Assembly (NCBI GenBank): GCA_036172245.1
Contig: JAYWIR010000040.1
Location: 1,054,001-1,118,000, forward strand
From: Raillietiella orientalis
Taxonomy: Eukaryota
DNA: 64,000 nucleotides
Direction of reading: 5' to 3'
The position numbers and the translations under genes are program-made. The notes below the pieces were generated by a model that saw only the letters and a program-made list of their open reading frames with translations, was not told the DNA's origin and did not search any database. Positions within the stretch are counted from its first letter, which is position 1; every line of letters begins with the position of its first letter. Of the stretch, positions 1 to 27,977 are shown piece by piece.

Positions 1-547
1 AAGTTCCCAGCACGAATGGGGTCGCGGCATGGTTTCTTCAGGAAAGCGGGATCGGCCACTGCGGCGAATCCCACTCGATCGTGTCGTGGGAGTGTCGTTT
101 GGCGAGCGTGAAGGCGCGCTTCTCGAGAAAGCGGCTGCGGAAGGCGAAGGAGCCATTCGTGCCTCGCGAGGGGGAGTCGGAAGTCGAAGGGAACGCGCGG
201 ACGCCCCCCGTCGGGGACACTTTCATCGGAAGCGGCCGCACGCTCGCGAATCGCTGCCCATCAAAAATCCCGAAAGCTGTCGACACTCAAAGGAAGGCGC
301 GCTGATTCCACGCACATTCAGCTACAGATTGATTTCACCATGCGCAGATCTTCACCAGCTTGAGGGACGTGCATCTTGGTGACAGCCACGTTCTTTGCAC
401 AGACGGATTTCTGGGGAGTGGTGATACCAACGAGTTGTTGGCTGCTTTGTAGGTACACACGGGATTAGGGATCACAACAACTCCATGTACGTGCGTGTCA
501 CGTGCATTAATGTCTTGAAATAATCCAAGCATAGGTGGCTATGCTGA

Positions 548-1302
548 GGTCCAGCAGCCGGACGAAAGCCGCCTGCGCGCTCCGCCACGAAGCATCCGCC
601 TAGGAAGTCTCGGCATCGCCCATCCGATCGGATGCTGCATGTCGCTCGCGTGCGATGCCAAGTTGCCGCCTGATTGGCTGATGCGCGGGAGGCGCGCGGC
701 GCGTCGCGTTCGGGGTGCGCGCGAATATTCGCGTCACTCACGGGAGCCACGCGCGCGCAGATCGACGGGGAGCGGAGGCAGACTCGCAAGGATTCTCAGC
801 AAAACGCCACCAGGCTGGCGGAAAAATGGCGAACCGGGAGCATCGCTGGCTGATTCTTGCTTGTTTGCCTCTCCCGAGGACTGCAGGAACGAGAAAAGGA
901 GGAAAGGGAAAAGACAGCAGCTGAGCGGTGAGCCGTTCCGTGTGATGGATGAGCCGCAAGTCGATGGTCGCGACACCATCGAAGCGTCGGGAGGTTGCGA
1001 AGGCACGAGGACGGCTGTGAATCCATTAAGTGGGCGGCTGTCGACCACTTGCGGAGTTGCTGACCGATCGACCGCTTCTTCGGAAACGTCCTTGGTCCCG
1101 TGAGCACGGAAGCAATGCTGCTGCATCTGCCAGAGGGCAGCTCTACGAACGACCCGGTTTGCGTGGACGAGGAACGCCTCCGTCACGAAAGGAAGCGGGC
1201 GCACCCGTGCCGACCACATGAGCGCTTGCCGAACGAGGAGAGGGAGCGGAAGCTGGGGGCACGAGCCAGAAGCTGGCTGCAGGTGCAGGAGGGTGCGGGC
1301 GG
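548..1302 (+). repeat. ~755-bp GC-rich module with promoter-like motifs, present in three copies (here, ~23405-24159 minus, 40644-41398 plus)
   Basis: Near-identical direct copy at offset 40096. Contains tgattggctg (reverse CCAAT), ggcggaaaa (E2F-like), aaaatggcg (YY1/start-like) and a possible donor g|gtgagc near 928. Confidence 0.85.
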
Positions 1303-3248
1303 GTACTTGTAGTACCTTAGTGTTCCGTAGGGGTACTTCTGCCCGTCAGAAGCCTGGGCGGATCGTCTCCAGAAAGTGGAGTTGGCGATCGGCCCGTTCC
1401 TGGAGGGCAAGTCTCACTTCCGGAACGGGCCGCGGTATGGAACGCAAACTTTGCGGCCCCCATCCTTCGCCCCCTACTTTTTGTTTGCTCCGTTCCCGTG
1501 GAAATAAAGAAAAGGACGAAGGACCTCGTGCGCATCGCCGTTTGGGGAAACGGGAGGCCAGAGTCCCTTTGATGGACTTGTGTGCTCCACGTCGGGATGG
1601 CGCTCTAGAACTCTTGACGTTGGAGCGGATGGAAATTCAGCTGCGATGGCAAACGTTGGCCGTCGCTGCGAAGTTTTGGAGCACCCCTTGGTGCGTTCCG
1701 GCCCGTCTTCTCGTCAGCCGTGTATCCGGAACGGGAGGAATTGCATCTCATCCTATGTGCCGCGGCAAGAAGATGAGAAGATGCGGCCTTCTCCTCGGAC
1801 GCACGGCCGCGCTGGCGAAGGAGAACGGGTGGATGATCTGCAGCCGCGGCAACTCGAGCGCATGTGTGGAAGAAAGAGTTGGCACGTGGGCGGTAGTGAA
1901 TGAGAGCAGCCACGAGACGTGGAATCGTCTGCTACGCAGCCGCTACGCCCGAGATCCTGGAGTGTCCAGCCAGGAGGACGTGGGCAGAGACGACCTGACT
2001 AGCTACGGCGCAGCCCTTCCTACGGAGAGCCCTCGTTAGCAGCCGGATGCCGAGGTGGCAAGTCTCTTGCCGTATCGCAGGCAGAGAAAAGTTGATGAGC
2101 TGTTGGACCAGGGGAGAGCTGGCGGACGCCACGACCCCGAGCGTCCTACCGCGAGGACTGAAGAAATAAGGAGAGCTTCCCGGCATCTCGATGGATGACC
2201 ACCAGTGATAACCGGTAGAAGGGTCCTTCCCCTAAAGTGGCTGGAGTCGGCGCTTATGTTGTTGCACTGGGGTCTCCCCTGCAACGCGCGCCGCCACCAC
2301 TGGACACGGGTCGTTCTCACCCGGTCACGCCGTTCACGGTGTGTTTATTACTAAGCACTTTGGATTTGCGGTTCTAGGCCCCGCTACCGCCAATAGTGCA
2401 TGGGACCTGCCAGGAAGCCGGTTCGCAGACCGGCTTGACTCTCCATGGCAGCGGAGGGGATAGGGGGTAAAACAAATAGAAAAAAAAATGAAACATTCAA
2501 AAAAAGAAAGAAACTATTTGGAAGGCCGGCAACGGATCACAGCCCGCGTGAGGAAGAGACCATCCTTTCCAGGATGCCCTCGAGGTCCCTCGTCATAGCT
2601 CCCAGATGGGACCAGCCGATCGCGATTCGCAGGTAGCGGGCCGAGTGAATCCGAACTGTGCCAGGTGCGGGGAACGGGAATCCTCCCCGCAAACCTGCTT
2701 CTTGACAGTGTCGCCCTCCGGCCCCTTTTGGAACGTTTCGGGACGACCCTCGGGATCCCGGAGGGCAGCCCTCCTGGAGATGTTTTTCGGCTCCTCTTCG
2801 TGCGGGACGCCCCGTAGCGAGCCGCAGCCTTAGCAGCGCTCAGCTGAATCCGCGGTATTGTGGCGGCCTGGAGTGGATCCGACGAAGTAAAAGATGCAAA
2901 CGATACGGACGTCATCGAGTACGCGGTTCGCCTCCTGCGAATAGCAACCCGATGGTCCCACCTGGGAAACAGGCAGAAGCACCTCGTCGCATCCTGCAAA
3001 AGATGGAATCAAAGGGACCGTGATCCCTTCCCGACCCTTCGAAGAACTATTGTTTTTTCAATTTTATTGTTTATTTATTTTATGTTTCCTTTTGTTTTTT
3101 CCCCATCCCCCTCCGATGCCGTGGAGAGTCAAGTCGGTCTGCGTACCGACGACCCGGCAGGTCCCTTGTTGTCTTGGCCGCAGAAAGGCCTTGCACTGCA
3201 ATGGTTGTCAGTTTGCGATAAACGTCCCGGCTTGACCGGGTGGCAACG
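1303..3248 (+). mobile_element. 5'-truncated, decayed L1/Tx1-like non-LTR retrotransposon (C-terminal ORF2 plus 3' UTR)
   Basis: Broken frames give YLSVP..EAWADRLQKV, LMDLCAPRRDGALEL (post-RT LCxPxxxGGLGL-like motif) and LLHWGLPCNARRHHWTR..NPNCARCGERES (zf-RVT-like knuckle). Homologous to 35807-36960 and 43678-44579. Confidence 0.75.
2312..2628 (-). mobile_element. Short 3'-end fragment of the same LINE family nested in antisense within the zinc-knuckle region of the 1303-3248 copy
   Basis: The reverse complement matches the family 3' UTR (T-rich tract, ggagagtcaagccggtctgcg..., ...gaccgggtgagaacg) and splits the host between HHWTR and RVNPNCARC. Confidence 0.75.
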
Positions 3249-6200
3249 TAGCGAGAGTGCCCTCGGACCGTCAAGGGTCGTGGAGTCGATGCGAGCAGCC
3301 TCTTTCCTCAGGTCAAAGGGTTTTCGTGTCGGATCGTCGACAGGGGCGGCGCTTCATCCTGGAGGACGACCGCTCCTCCTGGAGCAGCAGTGCTTCCAGC
3401 AACAGTCTAAGAAGGCTCTTCTCTCGGTGGTCGCATGGAGCTGTTCAGGTCGACCGTCGCGGCTCGCACGCGCACTCGCCGTGCAGTACGCGCGATCTGC
3501 CCTTCGAGCTTCTTCGGTGCGTCGTGCTGTGCGGCGATGTCGCCGCCAGCGATCACATGCGGGGTCTCGCAGGATGCGGAGAATCTCCGGCATCGGCGGC
3601 TTCCGATCGACAACTTGGGATCATCTGCGGGGTCTCATCTCCATGCACGCAGCGGTCCGAGCGTTTCGCCCGCGAGCCCCGGTTACGAGCGAACATTCCG
3701 TCTGATCCAGGACTCGTCAGCGACGATCTCCCATCTCCTCCCGGCGAACGATTCGTTCGACCCGCTCCTCGGGACGAGCAGCGATTGGTTGCACGTGTTC
3801 GTGCGTGTCCTCGTAAGAAGAACACGATAGAGCGCGGATGAACGTCGTTCGACGTGCAAGTAGAGGACATCACCATGTCACGGACGAAATGCCAGGAAGG
3901 AGGAACGGTCAACTTCTCTCGTCCATTCGCAGCACGCGGGACCTCACCGGAAGAGAGTCTCGTCGCTTCGCAGCCGTCGCAGAATCGCCCGGCGAGAGAT
4001 GCGAGCGTGCCAGAAGGTGCCAGGGAAAGAGTGCCAACGTCTGCAAATTCTCTTGCAGCGCTTCCGCGGAAGGACGTCAGTCGGTGTTGAGGATCGGAAC
4101 ATGTGCAACGGTGTGTAGCCTTGTTGTCAAGGGAAGGAGAGTCTCCTTGCGGTGTCGCACCGCAGGTAGGCAGCGGTCGAGACTCCTTGCCTGCTGACCG
4201 TCGAGCGGGAACACATGCGGGAACCTTCTCCTCCGAGGCTGGAAGGGCAACTGAACTCTTCCATCCATCCGATGAAGCACTTCAGCAGGTGGAACGGCTG
4301 CGCGTGGTGCGAGAGCAGCTCACGCACCGCTTTCGGAAACCAACTTCCCGCGGTAGTGCCAGGACTCTCCCCTTGGATTTGTTCGTTCCTCTGCAGCCCC
4401 GCGGCGAACCGGCTGCACACCGAGGTTCACGCACTCTCCAAATTTCCGAAAGGTGAAGCGCACGGCAAAGTGTTAGCGATCCCATCTCACGCGGGGGTGC
4501 CTCTTTTCCGTTTCGGAAGCGACCACCCCTCGCATCCGAGCTCGGGAGAGATTCGAGCCGCTGCCGGCCCGATATGGCGGACGACATCGAGGACCGCATC
4601 CACGGGTTGGCCCTGGGGCATCGGGATGGAAGGAACATCGCCGGCCGGCAGGATTTCTTCCCGTTCCTGCTTGGATACGGACGTCGCGTGGATTCGCCTC
4701 CGGCTTCTGCAAGTCCGCAGCACTCCGCGGCAACCGCATTGCTTCGTGTTGTGCGCAATCTTCTCGCTCGGCGATCGCCCCCCTCATCTCAAAATCCTCG
4801 CCCATTGGGGCGCTACGCACGCCAGCAGAGTTCGACGTTGGCCGTTTGCACGAGGGGATCCGCTGCGGCAGCTGCGCGAGCGGACGTCGCGACAAAAGGT
4901 GATCGGCGTTCTTCAGCTGTGGACCTTCTTGCACGGTTCGAGCGCAGGTGGAATCCCGTTTCGACGCGATGCCGGGGGTGATCACGCAGCATCTCAGAGG
5001 GGGAAGGAGAAAGCGAGCCGAGGACCTGCGTGGAAGGAACAGTTCACCCGTTCGGCCGTAACCCCCCCAACATGGCAAAAAAGAACTTGCAGTGCCCGTC
5101 GAAGATGATGCGCTGGGCTGAAGCGCGTTTGAATCGCTGGACGGCGCTCCGATCGGAAGTGACCAGAGGTCTCCGTTCCTCGCATTCTGCTTTCGATCTG
5201 CACGCATCTCTTCCGGTTTTCCTGAAATGCTCATCTTCAGCATTTTCGGAAATGCGGCACATGGCGTGAAGACGAGGGAGGAGTCGTACCGAGTTGCCCC
5301 TTGCCGAAGAGCAGTTCCGGGAGGTTTTTTCGTGAAGACTTTCCGACGAGCGCAGCTGCCGCCCTCGGTGAGAGGGCTGCTGAGCCCAGCTTCCTCAGGA
5401 ATGTCGTGTCCCGAATTCGAATTGCTCCGAAGGTAGGCCAAGGCCGGGATCGCTGCAAAACCCCGAACGTCCAAATCTCCGAATCGAAACTCCCGCATCC
5501 CTGAGTCCCGAAAGATTAAAAAAAAAAAAAAGAAATCGAAACCCTCGTTACCTCTGTTGGTGCGTCTGAATTGGTAAGGTCGATGCACATTGGAAAGATG
5601 CAAAATACACGTGTTCCACCTTACTCTATACATGAATATGCATGTGTGCACTTTTGCACGGGCAGAGGAATGCGCAAAGTTGCTTGCAACGTCGATCCTC
5701 ACCAACGTTTACCAACATACGTAGGATTGCTTCCAAAGGAAAGTGTACTAAAGTGCCCACTAAGAACGTATGTGCTGCAAAGAAAGTAAACATACATGCT
5801 TATTAGGTACACAAACGCGCATCGACAGATACATTTGAATTTACACTCATTGAATATGTGACTATTTATGCACTTGGTATGCTCCAGTTATCATCGACAC
5901 CATTTCTTTTGAAGTTAATAATTCGGTGCTTGCATTTTCGTCTCCAATGTATTTATCACGTGGGCAAATATGCGAAAGAGATGCAGCAAACACGTGCGTC
6001 GGCCAACTTTCGAGATTTCGACTTTCCGGTTTGCTATCCGCGCCGCCAAGCCTTCTCTTCCTCGGCATGAAGCTGCGAAGGACCGTGTCGTACAGGCTTT
6101 CGCGCGGCTAAGAAGGAAATTCCGCGGGGAGTCTCCGCCTTGCGAGGGCACTTCCGATCCTCTAAACACCAAGAACTTTCTCGAAAGCACGGAACATTTG

Positions 6201-9200
6201 CGCCGCAATATTTCATGCTCCCCCTGCTGTCTCCTCGCCTGCACGCCCTCGAAAGACTGCGGTGAAACAGCTGAGGGCAGATCGATCGCATCCCATCATG
6301 TCGCTCATTTGTCAGGAAGCGACAGGGTCCCTTGCATCGCACCAAACCGGCATCCACTTGGCAGGTGGACTCGGGTGTTCCCACGAAAGGGGGCAACTTT
6401 CTTTTCTGGAGAAATCACTCAGCGAGCGCCGCTCGAACGACGGCGCTCTTCGCCGTCGCAGTCGCAAACTTTCGATCGCCCGTCATCTGCTCGCACCTTG
6501 CAAGAAAAAGCACCGTGGGCGCACACGCGTCGACGGCAGCCCGCGCACGCACGCCCGCGTCCCGGTTCACCTCCAGGAATTTCAAGTTTGGAACTGGCAA
6601 CCGGACGGAAAGAGCGCTCTTCGCGGAATGTCCCTGGACGAGAGCCGCCCATGTCACACGCACTCTTGTGTGCCGAATGCCAACGCCATTCCCTTCCCAC
6701 GCTCGCATTGTACGATCCGCACTGCAATGGCGCCAACAGGTCTCCATGTGCGCTCAGCGACTTGGCTATCTCGCTACCCTCCTCTGGCCTTGCTTTCATC
6801 AACCCGTGCTCAGCTAGTGCGACGTCCGTGGAAGACCTCAGTCCTCCTCCCCATCAGTGCATCGGAGGGATGCATTTGAGCTTCCTTCCCGCTCGACCAG
6901 CGTCGCACTTGCAATGCTCAACATTCCCATTCTTCGATTGTGTGTCTCACGCCTTGCGAGAACATTCGCCAAACGAATTTTTGTATGGGCTGCAAGAAGG
7001 AAGCAGGGCGTTCCTCGGGGCACCTTTCAGCTGTCGCAGCTTTCAACCCAGCCAGTATACTCGAATTGATGTCCTCGAGCCCAAATGTACTTGGACGACG
7101 ACGGATGAGGTTCGCCTGCCGCAGGGAGAAAGTTGATGTTTGGCACGCACGCAATGATGCAAACACGCAAAATCTCTTTCGAAGGATGCCCAAAGAAAGT
7201 CACGTTCCTTCTTCAGCAAGCAGCCCACCGAGACGATTTCCTATCCCAAGGTATTCCTTGGCCGCTTTCTTCGGCTATCTTCCATGGACTTCGGGTGCCC
7301 CACGGGAAAATGCATCCGCTCCTCTCAAAGTTTCGTTTTTCCAAAGCAAATGAGCACCCGCTGAGCACGAAACCAGAAGTGGAGCCCGCATGCTGCCATC
7401 GTTTGAGGACGTAGGTCAGCAGCAGTTCGCGACTCGCAACATGCAACGGGCGTTCCATCGACGAAACGCAAAGAGCAGCGTTGAACGCTCGAATTTGCTT
7501 CCGATGATGACGATGACAAGTTCGTCACATGCAAAGGCACTGGGCGAACGCGAGCCAATTGGGATTGCACAACCGCAACAGCTCCCGAAATGCGTTGCGC
7601 GCGGCGTTTCGAAAGCAAGGGATGTTTGGGAGGCGGCCACACGAAGTTGGCGGCCGGCAAGCTGGTTGGAGTTGCTCCCTTCAGGAAATCCGTGCAGTGT
7701 GCTACTCTTCCTGGTTCCTGCTTCCGGATAGGCGATCGCGCGAGCGAAATCCCGGTACGGTGATCCAGGAGGAAGCGCTTCAAATTTCGTCATGCGATCG
7801 GGTGGAGATGACGCGTTCGCCACCGTTTGCGATTCAGCATGACGAAGAGTGCCCACAGCGAAGGAAAGCGAGGCAGCAGTTGGGTCGCGCAATGCTGCAC
7901 GTGGGCGACAAGTTTGCCAAATGCATCTCCTTCCCGCAACACTAGGAAGAAGACGGAACGCCAACGCCAATCCGCTGAGCAGGAGTTGCATTTCCGGGAT
8001 GCACAGCTGTCATTCCAGATTTTCGTGTTTACACTCTACACCGCCAGTCTTTTTGCTTTCCAGGATTCCGCCAAACAAATGAGAGCAGCGGCAGGAAAAC
8101 ACATTACTGGCTCTCTGTCCAAGATACCATGCCGAACTCGGCCACTTAACCACAAGATACGGCCCTCTATCCATCAACGTGTAGTAGAAATGACCAACTC
8201 GCTGTTCGTGACAAGTGACCTCTCGCTGGCCAGCAAGGAGGCCCAAAGTTTCCGGTCGTTGTTGGAATTGGGAACGTTGAGGGAGGAAACCACAATCAGG
8301 ATGAAATCTCCAGGATGGTGCAGCAGGCGACGACGATTTGGGCGACTGCCATACCGTCCGTGCAATTGCAGCGAAATCCACTCGACCAAGCGCGCAAGCG
8401 ATTCCAGCCAGCACCTCGCCTATGGATCGGATTGGAGGGCTCAGCCATTGCCCACTGGCCACCGCACAACCGTCTCCAGGGTGCTCCGCTCGTTCAGCAG
8501 GGAAGTGTGTCCAACCGTCGGGCGACACCGCCTTCACTTCAAGCACCCGCACCCGCTGGCCAGTCTGAGCACGCAGCGGACGGGAGCGTCAGCGCCGTGG
8601 ACTGGGCCTGGCCGAAAAACGATCCACCTGCAGGCATCCTGCGATTATCCACGCTCCTCCCGTTTGAACTGACGCGTGTGTGGGAGGACAGCAGTTTTCT
8701 GCAGAGGCTTCCCTAAGGCCGATGCGGAATCGCGTCCCTGCAGCGGAAATACGGTTCGCTTGCACCACTGGGACTCGTGGTCAGCAGTTGAGTCCGCCGA
8801 CGAGAATTGGCGGGCACTACTCTTGTCGTAGTTGCGATTCTTTGACCTGACCCAAAACGTCGTGAAGCCATTCTGTGAACACGCGGTCACTTTTCAGATT
8901 TCCCGAGAGGAATCAACGCGTCGCTTGAAATCCGTATTTTTCTCTTCTCTTTCTCCAGGCGGATCTTGCAGAGCCTGGTGCTGACCGTAGGAATGGATGC
9001 TTCGTCGCACATGGGGTCAAGCAGTTCTGGCACCATGACGCCTGCTTCGCTCTCGGCCACCGGAAGACCAAACGATTGGAAGGGCGGAAACTGCGGCTTC
9101 CCGTCTTTGGTTTGAGGAACGGCCCAATCCGTCATGCAGTTCCTGCTTTTCCTTCTTGCTGTTTCCGGCGTGCGTGGGAATGGATTCCGGGAGGCACTGC

Positions 9201-12200
9201 GGACAACGCTCCACGTCCGAAACACGTTGACCTGGAGAAACTCTTGGAGAATGGAATTTGGCTCAAGGAATCCGATGCACGACCGATGGACACGGGCAGT
9301 GCGTGAACACGTTTCCGAAGCTGCAAAGCCGGCGGAAGAGTTTTCTTTCACTCAGCGGTTTCAGAGGACAGCTGAAGGAATGGGCTGCCCCGATCAGCCA
9401 CTTTGGCTGACAGCACAAAGGGGAGAGCGACCGAAGAGCGATCATTGGAGCAAGGCCCGGAGAGGCTGGAGCCACAGCAGCACCAGCAACGATGCCAGCT
9501 TGGCAGCCCGAAAAGTCCGAAAGAATTCTCCGTGCCGGCAGTGCAGCCGAGGGCATTGCTGCTGTTTGTTGCATTCTCCGTGCAGCCATGTTGCATGGAG
9601 CCGTTTCCTGTTCCAGACCAGGAGACTTGCCATGCTCCCCCCAAGCTTCCAATGAGTTGATCCCTTTTACGATGCATTTCGCTCTTAAAGTGGTGTTCGA
9701 GGTGACACCTCTGCATGGATGCAAGTTGCGACACGTGCGATGGATTCGTGCAGGAGGGCACCGTTTCTCGCGGGATCATTCGTTTCGGCACGTTTTCTCC
9801 CCCCTCCCCATTCCCTGCACCATTCAGCCGAGCAAACACAAGACGGTGGATTTTCGCCGCACTTGCGTTTTCCATGCGCCTCCACAAGCCGGAGGCGGTC
9901 GCACGCACTCGTGCAGGAGCAACTGGACGATGGCTGCGTTACGATTCGCCGAGTGGTCCTTCCTAGGAAAATGCTGCTCTCTTCGTCTTTCCTTCATGCT
10001 TTCTGCACGCTGGAAAATTTCGGACACCAGGAGAGCTGGAGAGCGCTGGGTGAAGAACGGATAGCGGACTGCAATCGCCACTGCAGGCAGAAGAGAGAAA
10101 GGCATCAACGTAGTCGCTATGCATCGTCTGCTGACCTCAGAAATAGGCGGAAGACCGAATGCCACGCGGATAGGAAAATCTTGAATGGCATTCAGGCGGA
10201 TAAAGGTTCTTGCCTGAATCCATCGCTGGCACATCAAGGAAACTCGAAGGAGGTCTCCTCTTCTACCAGCGTTCATGAAGTGGCATCGAAGGAGTTCTTC
10301 CGAGAAATGGACGCTCGTGTTCCAGGTGATGCAGGAGGCATCCAGAGTGAAGATTTCTGTGGCAACTTCCGAAACGTCCTGCTCAGTCCAAACTGGGCTG
10401 AACGGTGAGCGTCAGGTGCATCCATGGCCTCCTTGCGTGACAGGAAGTCGCTCTCTGTCGATCGAGTGTTGTGACTTTTTCACGCTGTCATTGGTTGCCA
10501 TGATGAAACGTCAACATGTCGCTGTCACCGGAACGGATCCACACATGCAATGAAGCCTTGGATCCCAGGAACGCTGACTGTCGTTGATCCCTCACACTCT
10601 GCAGCCTGTTGAAGACATCCTCTCGCGTGACGCAAGGATGGCGATTCCTTTTCCTACCGGCTGATGTGGCTCGAGCACAAATTCGCTCGTTGGTTGGCGT
10701 TGTCGCTCGTTTCGAACGAATTAGAGCTTCAAATTCGAGGCGTCGTTTCCTTTCAGGATGAGAGCGTTCGCATCCGTTGTGGACGTCACTCGTTGTTCGT
10801 TTCGTCGCCAAGTTGCGGGCTTATCGGCCGAGGGTTGTCTTCTCCCCCGGAGGGTTGGCGAAAGATTGCGCGCCCTCAGCATCGCAATGCATTTCTCTTC
10901 TTTTGCGTGCGACGTGCCGGGGCGCACCACTACTGCACGTTTCTTCGACGCGCTGCGAAATGCACAGCAGTCACGCGGCGCCGCCATGCCTTCTGATGGT
11001 TGGGAGGCCACCCGACAACCAACATGTTCGCCGCCAGTCTGTGCATCGTCCAGAAATCACAAACAGTGGGTTCCGTTTGCTGGATTTCCAGGAACTTCAC
11101 CCAGTCATCGGCTTCCGGCATCCCGCTGCGTACGTCCGGAAATGCAGGCGCGACGACTGAACGCCTGATGCAAGGATGCTCTGCAAACGGGTGTTTCCCG
11201 CTGCTGGACGCGGCTTGGCGAAAGCTGCGCTCTCGAGCAGCCTGATTGCCATGACGACGTCGCAATCCTCTCGTCCCGACTCCTACCTCACGTCCAGTCT
11301 GCAGCGATGGCGGTTCGGCCGCTCGCGCGGTCGCCCGCCGTTGTCTTTCATGTGCTTCCGCCGCCAGCGAGAAAAGATGTATGCACGGCAGACTTGAGAC
11401 TCCGGTATTGTCCTGGACGTGCCAGCCAACCTGCCGTAGGACAGGGAGCCGCCACGACACGGGTTCAGCCTGCGATCCAGCACGATTCTCGCTTCGTGCG
11501 CAAGTGGCACACCCTCCGACGAGGCCGCTCGCCAGCACCGGCAGGGTCGTCCTCCCGACGGAAGGAAAAGCGCGCGGGGACCGTTCGGTCGCGTGCTGCG
11601 CCTCCTCGTACCAAGCGAGCCGCGAGAGGAGGCGACACGCGCGAAGACCCCCGCGGTCCGGAGCGAAGAGGGGTGTACAGGCGATCCCCCACCCCAGCCA
11701 GCCTCTGAGGCGTGGCCGCCGTCCGAACGGCACCCGGCCACCGGCACGCAACGGGGTGCTCCGGAACGACGGCGTTTCCATGCTCCTCCTCCATTGCGGG
11801 AACGTGCCACCTGGTGGGTGGAAAGGGTTGTGAGCCCAAGCATGCTGCTCAGGATGCGGGCGGGACCAGGGGATTTCCGGAGATCCTCTTTTCCTCCTTC
11901 TCTGCTCCTCCTCCTCCGCATGAGTAGCAGCACAACTCCTTTCTTTCCCTATTTTTGTTCTGGTCTCTTCCACTCCTTCCCTTCCAGGACGCTATCCCCA
12001 CGGGCACGCCAACCGCCTCCTGGGCTGCTCCTCCAGGAATTCTACCGACTGTCGCTGGACCGCTCTCACGGGGCAGCATTCCTTCGCTCGGAGCTTTTTT
12101 CTAGAACGCTTGAGCCAAGGTCTCCAGGAGAAGGTCGGTTCTGGCGGGACTCCAATGCGTGAGAATCCCCCGGAATTCCGTCAGGGATTTGAAAACTGGG

Positions 12201-12849
12201 TTCGAAGGCAGAGAATGGAGATCCGCCACTATCTATAAGCTGTCCGGGGTCCTGGGTGGATGTGCCATACGGGTCGCCGTTCCTTCCCTTTCTCGCGAAC
12301 AGATGGCGCTGCGTGCAGGAAGGACGATCAATCGAGAATGGCGACGACGGTGCGAGGAGCATCTTTCGAGATGGTAGAATGGCACTCCGCTCCTCCTCCT
12401 GAAGCATCATCGCCGCCGGCCGCTAGGTCTCGCTTAAAACGGACACCCCACGGGTGCGTGGACACGAGGGAAGCCGCTCGACCATTCGCGGGACTGGGCC
12501 ATCGTTTCCGAGCCAGACTCAAACAGAGAAGAAGAAAGAGGATGCAGCTTCACCCAGGTGGCACGCAAGGCAGCGTGCGCCGCTGCGTGCGGAACCCGGA
12601 AGCGCGTGCTGTTTCGTGCGTGGGGGAGCAGCTTCTGTAGGAGCACTGCGCGTGATTGGCACGCGCGCAGTGGTTTCGCGGTGCTGCTCCACCGAGGCAG
12701 CCGATCGGCCCTGTTGCTACGCGTTCTGCTACCACAGAGACAGCGTGCGCTCGCGTGGAAACCCAGGCAACGAATACGCGCGCGATGGTACAGATGGTAC
12801 TCTACCTTGCACGCATCCACGTCCTCTCCAAGCACCCTTGTTTCCTGTG

Positions 12850-13330
12850 AGGATCACCCACCCACATTGCAGGAACTCTCCTTGGACGCAGGGTACTGGA
12901 AGCGGAAGGGTGTTGCAGGGCAGCCTCGAACGAGGTCACGCTTGAGAACTCAGATTGACCTCTGGATTGCACGAGCAGTGACGACGATGGGTACTGCCCA
13001 CACAACCGGGAGGTTGCGTCGGTGTCCATAACCTCTTTCTCCTGACCCCAGTTTAGCGGATCTCGCCTTGGGCTGGCAACAACCCGGCTGCAGCAGCTCT
13101 TTGGTCTCCGCACGCATCCCTCCGTGACCGTTTCCGGAGAAGGATACGTGACCGCAGGTCGACAGACAGGTGGAACGAACCGTGTACGCGTTCCTGACTA
13201 CCCGTTGAAGATTCGTCGCCGCCGTCAGGCTTGGGGTTTTCCCGTGAAATGGGAAAGCGAAGAATGTGTGGTCCATGGAGGAGTTTCTCGCGTGGCATTG
13301 AAGCAAGTGTCCACACAAGAAGGACACAAG
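12850..13330 (+). mobile_element. Possible highly decayed LINE APE-endonuclease fragment
   Basis: LSLDAGYWKRK...RTQIDLWIA resembles the L-D-WR...SRIDY motif, and WESEECVVHGG resembles the WE.K..IRG linker. Frameshifted; motif resemblance only. Confidence 0.3.
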
Positions 13331-13889
13331 AAACGTGCTTCCGGGAAGGGGGCGAGAGCCAAAAGCTCTCCCCAGGCGCTTCCATACCGACCATCATCAG
13401 CGCAAGGATGACCCGCATTCGCTGACCCTTCACTGCAGCGAGCGACAGGCAAGGATGCTCTCTCTCTCACTCTTCGGACCTCGTTCCAGGTCTCAGCTTT
13501 GGCTCTGCCTTCATCATGAAACGCGCGGAAAGGCATTCAGCTGCTCCCGCATCTACGTGGCATGAGACCGCCTGCTGAATACTGATACATCTTCTCGAAA
13601 ACCTATTTGCTTGGGGCGAGCGAAAGACGCCAAAGCGGCGCATAATTAGAACCACCGCGGAGGTCGTCCGCCTGCTCGATGACGCGCGTCCCCACCTAAT
13701 GAAGGATCGCGACACTTGCCGCTCGACACTTTCGTGTGTATATATGTGGGAGCAGCGCCGCACCAGGTCGAACATTCTCCAGGACCGCCAAGAGCCTCCG
13801 TTCAGCGTGGGTACTTGGCAGCTCGTAACAGCACCCCTACGCCTTGCGACAGAACCATCTGGAACCAGTTGGATTGCTCGAAGGCACCA

Positions 13890-15294
13890 ATGCTTCCCGT
13901 TATCGGAACTATTATCCTGTGCTCCTGCATTTATCCTCCGTTCGCCGCACTCCAGGTACGGAGATCTGCGTAAGCGAGCGCACGCACTAAATTTTTGCAT
14001 CATGTTAGACGAATGGACGGTACTTTCCGCAGCACGTGGATACGGAACGGGAGATGAAAGAAGAGGAAAGTCACTGTAGGTTCACCATTCATCCCGGAGA
14101 GAAGTACGAAACCCCCTTGTCGACCGCAACTGGCACCTGTTACTATATAAGCGATGTGAGTTGCAACTTTCTCAGTCCGCTCGTACAATCCCATGACACA
14201 GGACGCTCCATTTGCACAGGAAAACTTCGTCTTGAGAATCACAGTGAGGAGAAATTCAGTTAATTATGACACGTGCAACCATTCTAACGAGACTACAGGA
14301 TTTGTAGAGATCGAAGATGCCATAAGAACGAAAAGGTGAGAGCGCTTCGGTTGGTGTCTCCGACTTTCCGACGTTTTCCGGCGACGTTGCTGAGGGGAAT
14401 TCTTTGCTGACCACCAGCGTTGCTTTCTATTCGCGAGGAGCAACGCAGGTCGTGCTGACATTCGTGCACGAAGCCTTCCTGGTCACTACTTGGGAGCCCT
14501 CCCACGGGGGACGGGAGGTTTGGTTCGCGAGCTGCTCTTGCATGAAGAGTGGGGAACGCGGTCTGAACAACACCCTTTCCTCCCGGGACCGACTCTTTCC
14601 GGGAAAGAAAGTGCGACCACTTCCCTGGAGTAACAACCACTGTGCTCTACGCAGCTTCTAATTTCTTTTCCTCCCATCCAGGTTTTCGATGAAGAATTTG
14701 CAAAAGGAGTTCCTGCACAATGCAGTTGGCGTTACTGAGATCAAAGTGAAATGGGACATATATTCTGGATACGTTGTGATGGTATTGGAAGCCTTCGCGT
14801 TCCCGGACAACCCAGTGGAAATTGGCAACGGGGAAGCTTCGTTGCCGTTGCTCAAAGTGATATGCTCGCCTTTCGAGAGCTTGGATTTCGTCCAACTCAA
14901 TGTAAGTGGCAAGCATTTCTTGTGGGAGCGGCTGCAGGCAGCTGTGGCTGCTCCCGTCACTTATTCGGAAGGTTTCCGAACAAGCCTGCGACTCACTTGC
15001 AAAGATTGCCTGAGATGTGAAAGAATACAACGACCTCTGACTTCGTCTACTTCTGCTCCTTAGAATCCTGAAAGCAAAGAAGTTGTCCTGAATACAGATC
15101 CGAAAAATCCGGACAAAAACTACGACCTGTACGTCGTCTCCCATTTTACGCGAAGCAACGAGGCAGAGATGGTGAACGTTCGTAATGGCACAGCGAGTGG
15201 GACATTGAGAATCCTCGAAAGGATAAATTACGTTTTTAGGACTACAAATGAATTCAGCAGTCCCAATGTGATGGTAGTCTTTACGCACAAGTAG
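13890..15294 (+). CDS. 5-exon gene for an uncharacterised 251-aa putatively secreted protein (exons 13890-13955, 14033-14155, 14220-14335, 14682-14901, 15064-15294)
   Basis: All four introns are GT..AG with consistent phases (0,0,2,0), giving 756 nt of open frame. Exon 1 is the signal-peptide-like MLPVIGTIILCSCIYPPFAALQ. Mature region runs HVDTEREMKEEESHCRF...PNVMVVFTHK with 4 Cys and sequons NHS, NET, NGT. AATAAA at 15367-15372. A diverged paralogous exon at 27978 conserves the acceptor and frame. Confidence 0.85.
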
Positions 15295-15408
15295 AGGCAG
15301 AATGACTGGAGCCGTTCAGCGGTGAATGCCCGTCATGAAAATCATAATGGAAACCGAGTGTACGGAAATAAAACATCTTCAGGGATTGGTTTGAGATGAT
15401 TTCGCACG

Positions 15409-18400
15409 GTCCATCGGTCGTGCATCGGATTCCTTGAGCCAAATTCCATCCTCCAAAAGTTCCTCCAGGTCAACGTGTTTCGGACGTGGAGCGTTGTCCG
15501 CAGTGCCTCCCGGAATCCATTCCCACGCACGCCGAAAACAGCAAGAAGGAAAAGCAGGAACTGCATGACGGATTGGGCCGTTCCTCAAACCAAAGACGGG
15601 AAGCCGCAGTTTGCGCCCTCCCAATCGTTTGGTCTTCCGGTGGCCGAGAGCGAAGCAGGCGTCATGGTGCCAGAACTGCTTGACCCCATTTGCGACGAGG
15701 CATCCATTCCTACGGTCAGCACCAGGCTCTGCAAGATCCGCCTGGAGAAAGAGAAGAGAAAAATACGGATTTCAAGCGACGCGTTGATTCCTCTCGGGAA
15801 ATCTGAAAAGTGACCGCGTGTTCACAGAATGGCTTCACGACCTTTTGGGTCAGGTCAAAGAATCGCAACTACGACAAGAGTAGTCCCCGCCAATTCTCGT
15901 CGGCGGACTCAACTGCTGACCACGAGTCCCAATGGTGCAAGCGAACCGCATTTCCGCTGCAGGGACGCGATTCCGCATCGGCCTTAGGGAAGCCTCTGCA
16001 GAAAACTGCTGTCCTCCCACACACGCGTCAGTTCAAACGAGAGGAGCGTGGATAATCGCAGGATGCCTGCAGGTGGATCGTTTTTCGGCCAGGCCCAGTC
16101 CACGGCGCTGTCGCTCCCGTCCGCTGCGTGCTCAGACTGGCCAGCGGGTGCGGGTGCTTGAAGTGAAGGCGGTGTCGCCCGACGGTTGGACACACTTCCC
16201 TGCTGAACGAGCGGAGCACCCTGGAGACGGTTGTGCGGTGGCCAGTGGGCAATGGCTGAGCCCTCCAATCCTATCCATAGGCGAGGTGCTGGCTGGAATC
16301 GCTTGCGCGCTTGGTCGAGTGGATTTCGCTGCAATTGCACGGACGGTATGGCAGTCGCCCAAATCGTCGTCGCCTGCTGCACCATCCTGGAGATTTCATC
16401 CTGATTGTGGTTTCCTCCCTCAACGTTCCCAATTCCAACCACGACCGGAAACTTTGGGCCTCCTTGCTGGCCAGCGAGAGGTCACTTGTCACGAACAGCG
16501 AGTTGGTCATTTCTACTACACGTTGATGGATAGAGGGCCGTATCTTGTGGTTAAGTGGCCGAGTTCGGCATGGTATCTTGGACAGAGAGCCAGTAACGTG
16601 TTTTCCTGCCGCTGCTCTCATTCGTTTGGCGGAATCCTGGAAAGCAAAAAGACTGGCGGTGTAGAGTGTAAACACGAAAATCTGGAATGACAGCTGTGCA
16701 TCCCGGAAATGCAACTCCTGCTCAGCGGATTGGCGTTGGCGTTCCGTCTTCTTCCTAGTGTTGCGGGAAGGAGATGCATTTGGCAAACTTGTCGCCCACG
16801 TGCAACATTGCGCGACCCAACTGCTGCCTCGCTTTCCTTCGCTGTGGGCACTCTTCGTCATGCTGAATCGCAAACGGTGGCGAACGCGTCATCACCACCC
16901 GATCACATGACGAAATTTGAAGCGCTTCCTCCTGGATCACCGTACCGGGATTTCGCTCGCGCGATCGCCTATCCGGAAGCAGGAACCAGGAAGAGTAGCA
17001 AACTGCACGGATTTCCTGAAGGGAGCAACTCCAACCAGCTTGCCGGCCGCCAACTTCGTGTGGCCGCCTCCCAAACATCCCTTGCTTTCGAAACGCCGCG
17101 CGCAACGCATTTCGGGAGCTGTTGCGGTTGTGCAATCCCAATTGGCTCGCGTTCGCCCAGTGCCTTTGCATGTGACGAACTTGTCATCGTCATCATCGGA
17201 AGCAAATTCGAGCGTTCAACGCTGCTCTTTGCGTTTCGTCGATGGAACGCCCGTTGCATGTTGCGAGTCGCGAACTGCTGCTGACCTACGTCCTCAAACG
17301 ATGGCAGCATGCGGGCTCCACTTCTGGTTTCGTGCTCAGCGGGTGCTCATTTGCTTTGGAAAAACGAAACTTTGAGAGGAGCGGATGCATTTTCCCGTGG
17401 GGCACCCGAAGTCCATGGAAGATAGCCGAAGAAAGCGGCCAAGGAATACCTTGGGATAGGAAATCGTCTCGGTGGGCTGCTTGCTGAAGAAGGAACGTGA
17501 CTTTCTTTGGGCATCCTTCGAAAGAGATTTTGCGTGTTTGCATCATTGCGTGCGTGCCAAACATCAACTTTCTCCCTGCGGCAGGCGAACCTCATCCGTC
17601 GTCGTCCAAGTACATTTGGGCTCGAGGACATCAATTCGAGTATACTGGCTGGGTTGAAAGCTGCGACAGCTGAAAGGTGCCCCGAGGAACGCCCTGCTTC
17701 CTTCTTGCAGCCCATACAAAAATTCGTTTGGCGAATGTTCTCGCAAGGCGTGAGACACACAATCGAAGAATGGGAATGTTGAGCATTGCAAGTGCGACGC
17801 TGGTCGAGCGGGAAGGAAGCTCAAATGCATCCCTCCGATGCACTGATGGGGAGGAGGACTGAGGTCTTCCACGGACGTCGCACTAGCTGAGCACGGGTTG
17901 ATGAAAGCAAGGCCAGAGGAGGGTAGCGAGATAGCCAAGTCGCTGAGCGCACATGGAGACCTGTTGGCGCCATTGCAGTGCGGATCGTACAATGCGAGCG
18001 TGGGAAGGGAATGGCGTTGGCATTCGGCACACAAGAGTGCGTGTGACATGGGCGGCTCTCGTCCAGGGACATTCCGCGAAGAGCGCTCTTTCCGTCCGGT
18101 TGCCAGTTCCAAACTTGAAATTCCTGGAGGTGAACCGGGACGCGGGCGTGCGTGCGCGGGCTGCCGTCGACGCGTGTGCGCCCACGGTGCTTTTTCTTGC
18201 AAGGTGCGAGCAGATGACGGGCGATCGAAAGTTTGCGACTGCGACGGCGAAGAGCGCCGTCGTTCGAGCGGCGCTCGCTGAGTGATTTCTCCAGAAAAGA
18301 AAGTTGCCCCCTTTCGTGGGAACACCCGAGTCCACCTGCCAAGTGGATGCCGGTTTGGTGCGATGCAAGGGACCCTGTCGCTTCCTGACAAATGAGCGAC

Positions 18401-21400: not shown

Positions 21401-24400
21401 CTGCTCGCATCGACTCCACGACCCTTGACGGTCCGAGGGCACTCTCGCTACGTTGCCACCCGGTCAAGCCGGGACGTTTATCGCAAACTGACAACCATTG
21501 CAGTGCAAGGCCTTTCTGCGGCCAAGACAACAAGGGACCTGCCGGGTCGTCGGTACGCAGACCGACTTGACTCTCCACGGCATCGGAGGGGGATGGGGAA
21601 AAAACAAAAGGAAACATAAAATAAATAAACAATAAAATTGAAAAAACAATAGTTCTTCGAAGGGTCGGGAAGGGATCACGGTCCCTTTGATTCCATCTTT
21701 TGCAGGATGCGACGAGGTGCTTCTGCCTGTTTCCCAGGTGGGACCATCGGGTTGCTATTCGCAGGAGGCGAACCGCGTACTCGATGACGTCCGTATCGTT
21801 TGCATCTTTTACTTCGTCGGATCCACTCCAGGCCGCCACAATACCGCGGATTCAGCTGAGCGCTGCTAAGGCTGCGGCTCGCTACGGGGCGTCCCGCACG
21901 AAGAGGAGCCGAAAAACATCTCCAGGAGGGCTGCCCTCCGGAGATGTCGTCCCGAAACGTTCCAAAAGGGGCCGGAGGGCGACACTGTCAAGAAGCAGGT
22001 TTGCGGGGAGGATTCCCGTTCCCCGCACCTGGCACAGTTCGGATTCACTCGGCCCGCTACCTGCGAATCGCGATCGGCTGGTCCCATCTGGGAGCTATGA
22101 CGAGGGACCTCGAGGGCATCCTGGAAAGGATGGTCTCTTCCTCACGCGGGCTGTGATCCGTTGCCGGCCTTCCAAATAGTTTCTTTCTTTTTTTGAATGT
22201 TTCATTTTTTTTTCTATTTGTTTTACCCCCTATCCCCTCCGCTGCCTTAGAGAGTCAAGCCGGTCTGCGAACCGGCTTCCTGGCAGGTTCCGTGAACTAT
22301 TGGCGGTAGCCGGGCCTAGAACCGCAAATCCAAAGTGTTTAGTAATAAACGCCCCGTGAACGGCGTGACCGGGTGACAACGCCCCATGTCCAGTGGTGGC
22401 GGCGCGCGTTGCAGGGGAGACCCCAGTGCAACAACATAAGCGCCGACTCCAGCCACTTTAGGGGAAGGAACCTTCCACCGGTTATCACTGGGGGTCATCC
22501 ATCGAGATGCCGGGCAGCTCTCCCCATTTCTTCAGTCCTCGCGGAAGGACGCTCGGGGTCGTGGCGTCCGCCAGCTCTCCCCTGGTCCAACCGCTCATCA
22601 ACTTTTCTCTGCCTGCTATACGGCAAGAGACTTGCCACCTCGGCATCCGGCTGCTAACGAGGGCTCTCCGTAGGAAGGGCTGCGCCGTAGCTAGTCAGGT
22701 CGTCTCTGCCCACGTCCTCCTGGCTGGACACTCCAGGATCTCGCGCAGCGTGCAGCGGGCGTAGCGGCTGCGTAGCAGACGATTCCACGTCTCGTGGCTG
22801 CTCTCATTCACTACCGCCCACGTGCCAACTCTTTCTTCCACACATGCGCTCGAGTTGCCGCGGCTGCAGATCATCCACCCGTTCTCCTTCGCCAGCGCGG
22901 CCGTGCGTCCGAGGAGAAGGCCGCATCTTCTCATCTTCTTGCCGCGGCACATAGGATGAGATGCAATTCCTCCCGTTCCGGATACACGGCTGACGAGAAG
23001 ACGGGTCGGAACGCACCAAGGGGTGCTCCAAAACTTCGCAGCGACGGCCAACGTTTGCCATCGCAGCTGAATTTCCATCCGCTCCAACGTCAAGAGTTCT
23101 AGAGCGCCATCCCGACGTGGAGCACACAAGTCCATCAAAGGGACTCTGGCCTCCCGTTTCCCCAAACGGCGATGCGCACGAGGTCCTTCGTCCTTTTCTT
23201 TATTTCCACGGGAACGGAGCAAACAAAAAGTAGGGGGCGAAGGATGGGGGCCGCAAAGTTTGCGTTCCATACCGCGGCCCGTTCCGGAAGTGAGACTTGC
23301 CCTCCAGGAACGGGCCGATCGCCAACTCCACTTTCTGGAGACGATCCGCCCAGGCTTCTGACGGGCAGAAGTACCCCTACGGAACACTAAGGTACTACAA
23401 GTACCCGCCCGCACCCTCCTGCACCTGCAGCCAGCTTCTGGCTCGTGCCCCCAGCTTCCGCTCCCTCTCCTCGTTCGGCAAGCGCTCATGTGGTCGGCAC
23501 GGGTGCGCCCGCTTCCTTTCGTGACGGAGGCGTTCCTCGTCCACGCAAACCGGGTCGTTCGTAGAGCTGCCCTCTGGCAGATGCAACAGCATTGCTTCCG
23601 TGCTCACGGGACCAAGGACGTTTCCGAAGAAGCGGTCGATCGGTCAGCAACTCCGCAAGTGGTCGACAGCCGCCCACTTAATGGATTCACAGCCGTCCTC
23701 GTGCCTTCGCAACCTCCCGACGCTTCGATGGTGTCGCGACCATCGACTTGCGGCTCATCCATCACACGGAACGGCTCACCGCTCAGCTGCTGTCTTTTCC
23801 CTTTCCTCCTTTTCTCGTTCCTGCAGTCCTCGGGAGAGGCAAACAAGCAAGAATCAGCCAGCGATGCTCCCGGTTCGCCATTTTTCCGCCAGCCTGCTGG
23901 CGTTTTGCTGAGAATCCTTGCGAGTCGGCCTCCGCTCCCCGCCGATCTGCGCGCGCGTGGCACCCGCGAGTGACGCGAAAATTCGCGCGCACCCCAAACG
24001 CGAAGCGTCGCGCGCCTCCCGCGCATCAGCCAATCAGGAGGCAGATTGGCATCGCACGCGAGCGACCTGCAGCATCCGATCGGATGGGCGATGCCGAGAC
24101 TTCCTAGGCGGATGCGTCGTGGCGAAGCGCGCAGGCGGTTTTCGTCCGGTTGCTGGACCTCAGGATAGGCACCTATACTTGGATTATTTCAAGACATTAA
24201 TGCACGTGATACGCACGTACATGGAGTTGTTGTGATCCCTCATCCAGTGTGTACCTACAAAGCAGCCAACAACTCGTTGGTATCACCACTCCCTAGAAAT
24301 CCGTCTGTGCAAAGAACGTGGCTGTCACCAAGATGCACGTCCCTCAAGCTGGTGAAGATCTGCGCATGGTGAAATCAATCTGTAGCTGAATGTGCGTGGA

Positions 24401-24706
24401 ATCAGCGCGCCTTCCTTTGAGTGTCGACAGCTTTCGGGATTTTTGATGGGCAGCGATTCGCGAGCGTGCGGCCGCTTCCGATGAAAGTGTCCCCGACGGG
24501 GGGCGTCCGCGCGTTCCCTTCGACTTCCGACTCCCCCTCGCGAGGCACGAATGGCTCCTTCGCCTTCCGCAGCCGCTTTCTCGAGAAGCGCGCCTTCACG
24601 CTCGCCAAACGACACTCCCACGACACGATCGAGTGGGATTCGCCGCAGTGGCCGATCCCGCTTTCCTGAAGAAACCATGCCGCGACCCCATTCGTGCTGG
24701 GAACTT
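15409..24706 (-). repeat. Right arm of the giant inverted duplication (may extend further right)
   Basis: Mirror of 1-9291. Paired coordinate sums are 24707/24693/24699/24700, reflecting a few small indels. Confidence 0.97.
21451..23404 (-). mobile_element. Mirror copy of the L1/Tx1-like fragment, with its nested 3' fragment at ~22065-22381
   Basis: Reverse complement of 1303-3248 within the right arm. It retains a 14-nt stretch (ctgcacgctgcgcg region) missing from the left copy. Confidence 0.75.
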
Positions 24707-27700: not shown

Positions 27701-27756
27701 CGGACGACCTTCACACGCACACGTTTCGGGTGTTTCCGGCTCTTCACCCGATTGCG

Positions 27757-27945: not shown

Positions 27946-27977
27946 GACTCAGAAAACCCCTTACTTCTGTTCCTTAG

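Follow-up and report, generated by a model that had tools for sequence, protein, structure and literature searches.

Inverted multiplication of genomic segments has been described in several systems, each of which resembles in part the locus analyzed here. In human de novo copy number variants of the DUP-TRP/INV-DUP type (MECP2 and PLP1 loci), a segment is triplicated with its middle copy inverted, one turn lying at a pair of inverted repeats and the other at a microhomology-type join, as outlined in the pertinent sections of the report (PMC11293582). Triplications of the ODIRA type are interstitial, have the orientation +,-,+ and keep their unique flanks; their turns are closely spaced short inverted repeats, and secondary rearrangement lengthens the spacers, according to the corresponding part of that account (PMC10766186). 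Long inverted arms that carry genes, enclose a spacer and bear signs of gene conversion are found in the human Y-chromosomal palindrome P8/VCY (PMC6790999) and in Folsomia candida, an arthropod whose assembly contains several long inverted structures (PMC5490193), to the extent that the two sources detail them. At the level of single genes, the primate L/M opsins are described, in the relevant portion of PMC3213168, as having homogenized introns and more divergent exons between neighboring paralogs, and the excerpted account of snake toxins (PMC2711939) depicts block replacement of coding segments, termed exon segment switching (ASSET).

The locus considered here lies on contig JAYWIR010000040.1 (C40) of Raillietiella orientalis. 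The window denotes the whole stretch of 64,000 nucleotides that was analyzed, and positions without a contig label refer to it. The locus most likely represents a known kind of structure, not a switch or a mobile element. It is probably a segmental duplication, namely an old inverted triplication that arose locally in the genome of an arthropod and was shaped by gene conversion.

Organization of the locus

Self-BLAST of 264 kb revealed three copies of a segment of ~24 kb, denoted X, in the orientation +,-,+ and spanning ~101 kb. Copy A (+) occupies C40:998415-1022744 and copy B (-), the inverted middle one, C40:1038897-1063291 (24.4 kb). The inner part of copy B (1-9291, minus strand) lies in the window, and the remainder extends upstream of it to C40:1038897. 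Copy C (+) is present as a full right arm of 24.0 kb at 15409-39447 (C40:1069409-1093447). The order along the 101 kb is G1(-) U X_A(+) G2(-) S1 G3(+) X_B(-) U' G4(+) X_C(+), where G1-G4 are paralogous genes; the right edge of copy C then passes into unique DNA. U and a G gene form a block whose two copies face each other in inverted rather than direct orientation.

Copies B and C form a palindrome around a spacer at 9292-15408. Positions 1-9291 match 24706-15409 in inverted orientation with 98.9% identity over 9306 columns (77 mismatches and 4 gap openings). The first-pass annotation had reported inverted arms of at least 9.3 kb and a spacer of 6117 bp. Re-measurement returned the same spacer size, and the arms are real, but they are 24.4 and 24.0 kb long and a third copy exists. 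Copies A and B form a second palindrome, with 33-kb arms around the 11-kb S1 (11,139 bp), no second copy of which is present in the 264 kb examined.

Several smaller features mark the arms and their edges. A dispersed repeat of ~1.9 kb (1296-3249), which contains an internal inverted duplication, is a passenger in the arm; further copies of it, 65-86% identical, are numerous on other contigs. For the arm-specific, spacer and CCDC149 DNA we found no dispersed copies outside this locus, the counts being lower bounds. An extra copy of the arm stretch 548-1302, a candidate conversion partner of copy B, is located in the right flank (40644-41398, +); its identity is 99.6% with B, 97.7% with C and 97.4% with A. 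In this stretch, copy B resembles the flank copy (99.6%) more than it does copy C (97.7%). Copy C alone carries a scar at 28410-28443, in which ~370 bp are deleted and replaced by an inverted copy of the left flank, forming a 34-bp hairpin. It is a scar of the template-switch type, a templated inverted insertion. At the junction between G4 and copy C (15400-15415, +), the homology of G4 to the 3' flanks of its paralogs stops at the first base of copy C. If the former flank of G4 resembled those of G1-G3, the join at 15408/15409 would involve a 4-nt microhomology (GTCC) and one extra base.

Every copy of X includes the conserved gene CCDC149, which was modeled in copy C as eight exons (30396-35367, +), the 5' exon or exons lying outside the model. 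All eight are open and have GT-AG splice sites in each of the three copies, which differ at 6 sites in 1210 exonic bases. Assignment to the CCDC149 family is based on PF09789, matched by four of the six exon pieces scanned, three of them above the curated cut-off (E values of 4e-10, 5e-13, 4e-10 and 6e-4 for profile positions 1-38, 150-201, 256-300 and 202-225, respectively). What distinguishes the gene here is the presence of three near-identical copies at one locus, the only one at which it was found (counts again being lower bounds). The two copies beside the spacer point outward. CCDC149 lies beyond the stretch covered by the first-pass annotation.

Family of secreted-protein genes

The spacer gene, G4 (13890-15294, +), consists of five exons (13890-13955, 14009-14155, 14220-14335, 14682-14901 and 15064-15294), all with GT-AG sites, and codes for a predicted secreted protein of 259 aa. 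Its N-terminus contains a hydrophobic signal-like stretch, and there is no hydrophobic membrane segment beyond it. The AATAAA motif at 15367-15372 (+) ends 36 bp ahead of copy C, in agreement with the first-pass description of a signal-peptide gene with AATAAA less than 40 bp from the arm edge. That description had taken the gene to be single, which does not hold: three intact paralogs (G1, G2 and G3, 281 aa each) are located 31-77 kb upstream. Frames and splice sites are intact in all four five-exon genes, as are the four cysteines of the mature part, and G genes sit at the segment ends, at every turn of the inverted structure. Moreover, each copy of X contains an exon-5 relic (27978-28193, +, in copy C) that has 43-45% amino acid identity to G4 exon 5 and one in-frame TAA; no exons were found upstream of it. 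That G4 belongs to a diversifying secreted-protein family is supported by the four paralogs, their mosaic exons and the 37-38% identity of G4 to the others.

No homolog of the G protein was detected in databases, which include no close relative of this arthropod. By eye the protein resembles a CUB domain, but a match to the CUB profile was not obtained: profile scores fell within those of shuffled sequences (48-96 of 250 and 29-250 of 250 shuffles scoring as high), the hhalign probability was 0.2-0.5%, and none of the 136 PF00431 matches was on C40.

Similarity among the G genes is uneven. Their upstream regions and intron 3 are 84-97% alike, as against 46-60% for the divergent exons. Intron 3 of G4 (14336-14681, +) is 88-89% identical to those of G1-G3, which share 97% among themselves, whereas the flanking exons 4 and 5 of G4 are only 46-58% identical to their counterparts. 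Between G4 and G1, differences amount to 38/346 sites in intron 3, 93/220 in exon 4 and 122/228 in exon 5. In the same pair, codon positions 1 and 2 of exons 2, 4 and 5 differ at 168/394 sites, compared with 71/243 in introns 1, 2 and 4 (Fisher p=0.0007, for exons chosen after the data were seen). In the pair G2 and G3, exon 4 is the same at all 220 sites and exon 2 differs at 67 of 144; G2 exon 2 (53% identity) lies between introns of 88% and 94%, an apparent exon-sized swap with sharp edges. Exon 2 occurs in the family in three versions, exon 4 in two and exon 5, with the relic counted, in three. Since NG86 dN/dS values among the genes are below 1 (0.47-0.84) and, in exons 2, 4 and 5, differences are more frequent at third codon positions than at the other two, positive selection is not demonstrated. 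The exons of G4 are much older than the arms, whose divergence is 1.3%, and the G family predates the triplication.

The spacer itself had been described as unique, yet most of it has a counterpart beside copy A. Positions 9292-10475 are 95% identical to that region overall (96-100% in most 200-bp bins), and the range per 200-bp bin is 91-100% when ~12258-13800 is included. The upstream region of G4 (12258-13889, +), presumably comprising its promoter and 5' UTR, matches that of G1 at 91-98% up to ~13800. The only stretch without a counterpart is 10476-12257, which is replaced beside copy A by ~1.7 kb of non-homologous sequence.

Divergence and probable gene conversion among the copies

When all three copies are aligned over 23.9 kb, 125 SNPs are private to A, 176 to B and 164 to C. 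Pairwise divergence is 1.23-1.44% (arms 98.6-98.8% identical), with B and C differing by 1.44% substitutions. The private SNPs are strongly clustered: there are 135 changes of label along the alignment compared with 307 +/- 10 in permutations (0 of 10,000 as low). The longest identical tracts per pair (1442, 2069 and 1504 bp) exceed the 99th percentiles of 722-810 bp expected under uniform placement (0 of 2000 placements for each pair). This clustering argues against a fold-back artifact and for patchy gene conversion. The arms thus appear to have been homogenized by conversion tracts, although the SNP pattern does not separate crossover from conversion. In the distal 1.3 kb of copy C, C-private variants are denser than in the remainder of the copy.

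Clusters of 1-2-bp indels in copy B, opposite 33000-37200, resemble consensus errors; therefore, error may account for some of the B-private variants and, with them, for some of the clustering. The affected stretch falls outside the 9.3-kb arms, where the differences are the 77 substitutions and four indels.

Possible spacer inversion and hairpin RNA

Inversion of the spacer by arm-to-arm crossover is physically possible. However, the spacer contains all five exons of G4 together with its AATAAA and, upstream of the gene, ~4.6 kb of further DNA, so that a flip would turn the gene and this DNA together and would not act as an expression switch. An invertible switch was accordingly rejected: inversion would leave the promoter-gene and exon connections unchanged, with the proviso that the true start site may lie elsewhere. 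Hairpin dsRNA transcribed through the arms, mentioned in the first-pass annotation as a known property of long inverted repeats, is not favored by the gene models, in which the flanking CCDC149 copies point outward and the G4 poly(A) signal precedes the arm. The first-pass view of the locus as rearrangement-prone is supported.

Alternative explanations

An assembly artifact, in which a single contig was built from allelic haplotypes or from chimeric reads of the fold-back type and the three copies stand for only one or two loci, is unlikely, even though the assembly does contain redundancy. The hits obtained on contigs C65 and C77 are the same down to their coordinates, C141 and the end of C3 overlap over 28.7 kb with 100% identity, and the two 13,056-bp ends of C198 are 100% identical inverted copies. 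The error-prone appearance of part of copy B would also fit, and an arm divergence of 1.2-1.4% is within the range of heterozygosity. Nevertheless, three versions with 125-176 private SNPs each exclude two alleles of one diploid. In a fold-back chimera both arms would be copied from a single molecule, but 8 differences between B and C lie in the 291 bp next to the junction. In addition, the turns hold different intact genes (G2, G3 and G4) and spacers of 6-11 kb, and copy C continues into unique DNA. It is improbable, too, that selection on CCDC149 dosage shaped the locus with the G genes being incidental. The triplicated segment is indeed the one with CCDC149, and all three copies are open with 6 variant sites, but intact copies are expected without selection at 1.3% divergence, and the G family is both older than the triplication and present at every turn.

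We also consider it rather unlikely that the locus is an active diversification system or invertible cassette, in which the palindromes frequently shuffle exons of G1-G4 or flip the spacer, so that a secreted protein of host interaction would exist in numerous haplotypes or somatic variants. The sharp-edged swap of G2 exon 2, the excess of exon over intron divergence between G4 and G1, and the position of all G genes at turns are in line with it. Such an excess, however, may also arise from ordinary germ-line conversion and purifying selection, as put forward in the part of PMC3213168 that deals with the opsins. Furthermore, a pool of silent donors is absent: all four matches to exon 2 and all four to exon 4 fall in intact genes, and exon 5 alone has extras (four intact copies plus the three near-identical relics). 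None of the 116 scanned ORFs contains a recombinase family, and the upstream region would move with the gene in a flip. Least probable is capture of the gene by a transposable element, a very large one of the foldback or composite type; the first-pass annotation had envisaged a foldback or composite element. Long inverted arms around a spacer and the dispersed repeat within them might suggest one, but the arms hold an intron-rich host gene and no dispersed copy of the locus was found. A target site duplication (TSD) at the outer arm ends was likewise not found: the outer end is fuzzy, homology of B with A runs on past it, and comparison of 961 offset pairs (+/-15-nt offsets) gave nothing better than three 4-nt words. 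No Pfam family, transposases included, was found in the 116 ORFs of at least 88 aa from 1-13800 and 24700-27960, the ORFs of 27960-39447 having been scanned in part. Non-autonomous elements lack a transposase.

Proposed origin of the locus

The inverted triplication would have arisen stepwise, through template switching during replication or through the repair of breaks, one turn falling at the inverted G2/G3 pair and the other at the putative microhomology join. Non-allelic gene conversion may later have homogenized the arms, its tracts being 1-2 kb long, and replaced intron 3 and the upstream region in the G genes; the old, divergent versions of the exons would have been retained or exchanged as blocks. 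Selection would then retain the divergent exons, yielding several co-regulated variants of one secreted, putatively beta-rich protein, with CCDC149 as a passenger of the triplication. Flips of the spacer by B/C crossover might occur occasionally as a neutral structural polymorphism.

This scenario departs from each of the known systems. Structures of the DUP-TRP/INV-DUP type, in the form presented in the sections on MECP2 and PLP1 (PMC11293582), have a direct duplication of the stretch that the inverted pair encloses, which is missing here. A single event of that type is insufficient because S1 is single in the 264 kb and the G4 exons are so much older than the arms. Unlike these human de novo variants, the arthropod germ-line locus is old and multi-step, since its copies are 1.2-1.4% diverged and converted. 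Instead of the short inverted repeats of ODIRA, its turns have spacers of 6117 and 11,139 bp. In contrast to P8/VCY and the Folsomia palindromes, it comprises three copies in two nested palindromes with arms 98.6-98.8% identical, and conversion tracts are evident, whereas the passages on Folsomia candida in PMC5490193 report no concerted evolution. Compared with opsins and ASSET, whole exons at 46-60% nucleotide identity are involved, in four genes in inverted orientation; the G protein, of no recognized family, is not known to be a toxin. Five other long inverted duplications (92.8-100% identity; a biased pick) occur in the same assembly, a feature in common with Folsomia candida.

Implications

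It is conceivable, though unlikely, that exon shuffling is a permanent function of the nested palindromes and serves a new family of secreted proteins involved in recognition or host interaction. The homogenized introns and upstream DNA would serve as recombination handles by which whole exons of ancient divergence pass between the four inverted genes, the chimeras would differ among individuals or tissues, and this sparsely sampled arthropod lineage would grow and maintain gene families mainly via inverted duplications genome-wide. Frequent exon swaps or the existence of both spacer orientations would make the locus an arthropod case of diversification by recombination. If the other inverted duplications are not real, they are a warning about this assembly; if they are, the genome would be useful for palindrome biology outside sex chromosomes. 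The locus is a clear case, from an invertebrate, of an inverted triplication that is old and was shaped by gene conversion; it harbors an uncharacterized family of secreted proteins in which the exons are older than the introns. It is also a compact locus for studying how inverted architecture lets paralogs share regulatory DNA yet keep different coding exons.

Three copies of a 24-kb segment form two palindromes

Self-BLAST of the window bore out the near-identical inverted arms described in the first-pass annotation: positions 1–9291 match 24706–15409 in inverted orientation at 98.9% identity over 9306 columns, with 77 unevenly distributed mismatches (41 transitions, 36 transversions) and 4 gap openings. 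An inverted repeat so long and so alike is far beyond chance. These 9.3-kb arms are, however, only the inner part of a longer segment (X), a third copy of which lies upstream of the window on the same contig (C40, of which the window covers 1054001–1118000; bare coordinates are window positions). Comparison of 264 kb (the window plus 140 kb of upstream and 60 kb of downstream sequence) with itself revealed three occurrences of X, each of ~24 kb: copy A (C40:998415–1022744, + strand), copy B (C40:1038897–1063291, −) and copy C (C40:1069409–1093447, window 15409–39447, +). Copies A and B with their flanks make up a second palindrome with ~33-kb arms and a spacer (S1) of 11,139 bp. The entire structure spans C40:992094–1093447.

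The spacer between B and C is 6117 bp long, as annotated, but not unique: most of it has a counterpart beside A (9292–10475 and about 12258–13800, 91–100% identity per 200-bp bin) and only about 1.8 kb does not. All six genome-wide spacer matches are on C40, at this locus only. Likewise, its gene (G4; five exons, 259 codons, GT–AG introns) has the annotated signal-like start and AATAAA (at 15367) but is not single. Three paralogues with the same exon structure, 281 codons and open frames lie at the ends of X: G1 (C40:992451–993917, −), G2 (C40:1023379–1024842, −) and G3 (C40:1036796–1038262, +). All four start with a hydrophobic signal-like stretch, after which no membrane segment was found, and have four cysteines of the mature part in common; the proteins are predicted to be secreted. 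G4 is 37–38% identical to G1–G3 (94–98 of 257 residues). Searching the genome with exons 2, 4 and 5 gave four, four and seven matches, respectively, all at this locus. The three extra exon-5 matches, one per copy of X, are relics with one TAA; their identity to G4 (41–45%) exceeds that of G1–G3 to G4 (26–30%).

X carries a CCDC149 gene: of the six exon pieces scanned, four match PF09789 (three above the cut-off), and in all three copies the eight modelled exons keep open frames and intact splice sites (6 variant sites). The genome holds no other full copy of this DNA, only a 46-bp match on C32. None of the 116 ORFs scanned in the rest of X matched a Pfam family, and a scan of the window for Rfam families found none. 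The stretch at 1296–3249 (also 21451–23411 and 35807–36945) belongs to a family of dispersed repeats, about 1.6–1.9 kb long and represented on numerous contigs, which contain inverted segments and gave no ORF with a Pfam match; it is a passenger in the arm. Copy C has a 34-bp hairpin (28410–28443) where A and B have ~370 bp, a deletion with templated insertion of an inverted copy of the left flank, and a private 37-bp tandem duplication within a CCDC149 intron (34314–34389). Copy B has a specific 67-bp insertion, mostly a poly-T run, in a CCDC149 intron (C40:1045273–1045340), followed by a stretch dense in small indels, possibly errors of the consensus.

Several neighboring features were also recorded. 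Just left of the triplication, one open frame of 5274 codons (C40:973523–989344) gave no Pfam match in the 3332 residues scanned. S1 contains a decayed non-LTR-retrotransposon-like stretch (C40:1026900–1029500, − strand; zf-RVT, E 0.002, below cut-off). Two low-GC, G-skewed stretches resembling the CCDC149 gene body (C40:1030200–1034000 and window 49000–57000) are probably intron-rich genes; the ORFs scanned there gave no confident Pfam match. A short imperfect palindrome (52032–52149, 83% over 120 bp) lies within the low-GC right flank of the locus. For an exon of bifunctional coenzyme A synthase (C40:920512–921270), identity to the best full-length matches in the database is only 27–30%.

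Origin and nature of the locus

In an assembly artefact the copies of X would be alleles or a fold-back chimera rather than separate loci. Redundant contigs are indeed present in the assembly, and B shows error-like small indels opposite 33000–37200; 21 of the 52 alignment indel events are of 1 bp, 17 of homopolymer type. Nevertheless, over the 23.9-kb three-way alignment A, B and C have 125, 176 and 164 private SNPs, respectively (pairwise difference 1.23–1.44%), and three versions are impossible as two alleles of one diploid. A chimera should be identical at the turn, yet within the final 291 bp B differs from C at 8 sites. We regard an artefact as quite unlikely. As to redundancy, CUB matches on C65 and C77 are identical at identical coordinates, and C141:1–28691 and C198:1–13055 overlap at 100% the ends of C3 and C21, respectively.

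The proposed foldback or composite element is not supported: we found no target site duplication at the outer ends, no transposase family among the ORFs scanned and no dispersed copies of arm-specific, spacer or CCDC149 DNA in the genome. Crossover between long inverted arms, 24 kb here, could flip the spacer. However, G4 and 4.6 kb of upstream DNA would flip together with it, so that G4 expression should not change; as to an invertible cassette, the ORFs scanned gave no recombinase family, and no silent donor pool was found. Hairpin RNA from the arms would have no evident read-through source, since the CCDC149 copies beside the spacer point away from it and G4 terminates short of the arm.

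With its +,−,+ order and unique flanks, the locus has the layout of an inverted triplication. DUP-TRP/INV-DUP rearrangements, as outlined in PMC11293582, involve one template switch via an inverted repeat pair and a second join by NHEJ or microhomology. Here, G2 and G3 flank one turn, and the second has a candidate 4-nt microhomology, assuming that the former flank of G4 was paralogue-like; homology of G4 to the 3′ flank of its paralogues ends where C begins. In contrast to such rearrangements, S1 occurs only once in the 264 kb, and a fresh ODIRA product, as outlined in PMC10766186, would have shorter spacers. The distal end of C has more private variants than its interior, and the exons of G4 are far older than the arms. 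Because of the single S1, the long spacers, the variant-rich end of C and the old exons, the locus behaves as an inverted triplication, yet not as a canonical single-event DUP-TRP/INV-DUP.

Probable gene conversion and mosaic genes

Private SNPs occur in runs (135 label changes, where permutations gave 307 ± 10), and the identical tracts reach 1.4–2.1 kb, about twice the 99th percentile under uniform placement. B at 548–1302 shares 99.6% identity with a copy in the flank (40644–41398) but 97.7% with C. The G genes are mosaics. G4 and G1 are 87% identical in the 400 bp upstream and 89% in intron 3, versus 60, 58 and 46% in exons 2, 4 and 5; for G2 and G3, exon 4 is 100% and exon 2 only 53% identical, with flanking introns at 88 and 94%. 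In exons 2, 4 and 5, picked after the data were seen, 168 of 394 first and second codon positions differ between G4 and G1 versus 71 of 243 positions in introns 1, 2 and 4 (p = 0.0007), but third positions differ even more. Neither the third positions nor dN/dS (0.47–0.84) support positive selection. The simplest reading is that conversion would have overwritten the non-coding parts, while purifying selection would have kept divergent old exon lineages. Gibbon L/M opsins, as reported in PMC3213168, are similar in that homogenized introns accompany divergent exons. An active exon-shuffling locus is improbable.

Inverted duplications elsewhere in the assembly

Five other places, chosen via paired opposite-strand matches (a biased pick showing recurrence and saying nothing on frequency), were all long inverted duplications: C3:1103040–1152586 (19.2-kb arms, 99.93%; 11.2-kb spacer), C198:1–31994 (13.06-kb arms, 100%; 5.9-kb spacer), C4:1150852–1248358 (13.2 kb at 98.5% and 6.0 kb at 92.8%), C10:4705001–4959507 (arms at least 12.3 kb, 99.3%) and C43:722339–1242986 (arms at least 19.0 kb, 99.4%). 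One C198 arm is identical to the end of C21, which gives no alternative orientation because C21 ends inside the arm. A 77%-identical paralogous stretch is common to arm and spacer of C198 (7569–8376 and 17461–18241), and the pairs on C4, C10 and C43 include CUB-domain matches. The five reflect either a tendency of the whole genome to form inverted duplications or a trait of the assembly. Palindromic blocks are reported in the arthropod Folsomia candida (PMC5490193), and human Y palindromes are described as labile (PMC6790999). The locus belongs to known kinds, namely inverted triplications or palindromes that undergo gene conversion, and paralogues with homogenized introns.

Putative function of the secreted proteins

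Neither a homologue nor a fold was established for the G proteins. A resemblance to CUB domains, noticed by eye, did not stand up in two profile tests, and exon models gave only beta strands, at low confidence. The best database matches of tolloid are mostly chelicerates, crustaceans and insects (53–67%), with no close relative, and the cuticle family PF00379 has 14 genome matches; we infer that the animal is an arthropod. With no close database relative, the orphan status of these proteins is weak evidence of novelty. Considering the secretion signal, conserved cysteines, no recognizable catalytic family and retained exon diversity, our best guess, with the chances about even if the reading of the locus given above holds, is that they are secreted binding proteins whose variants differ in target.
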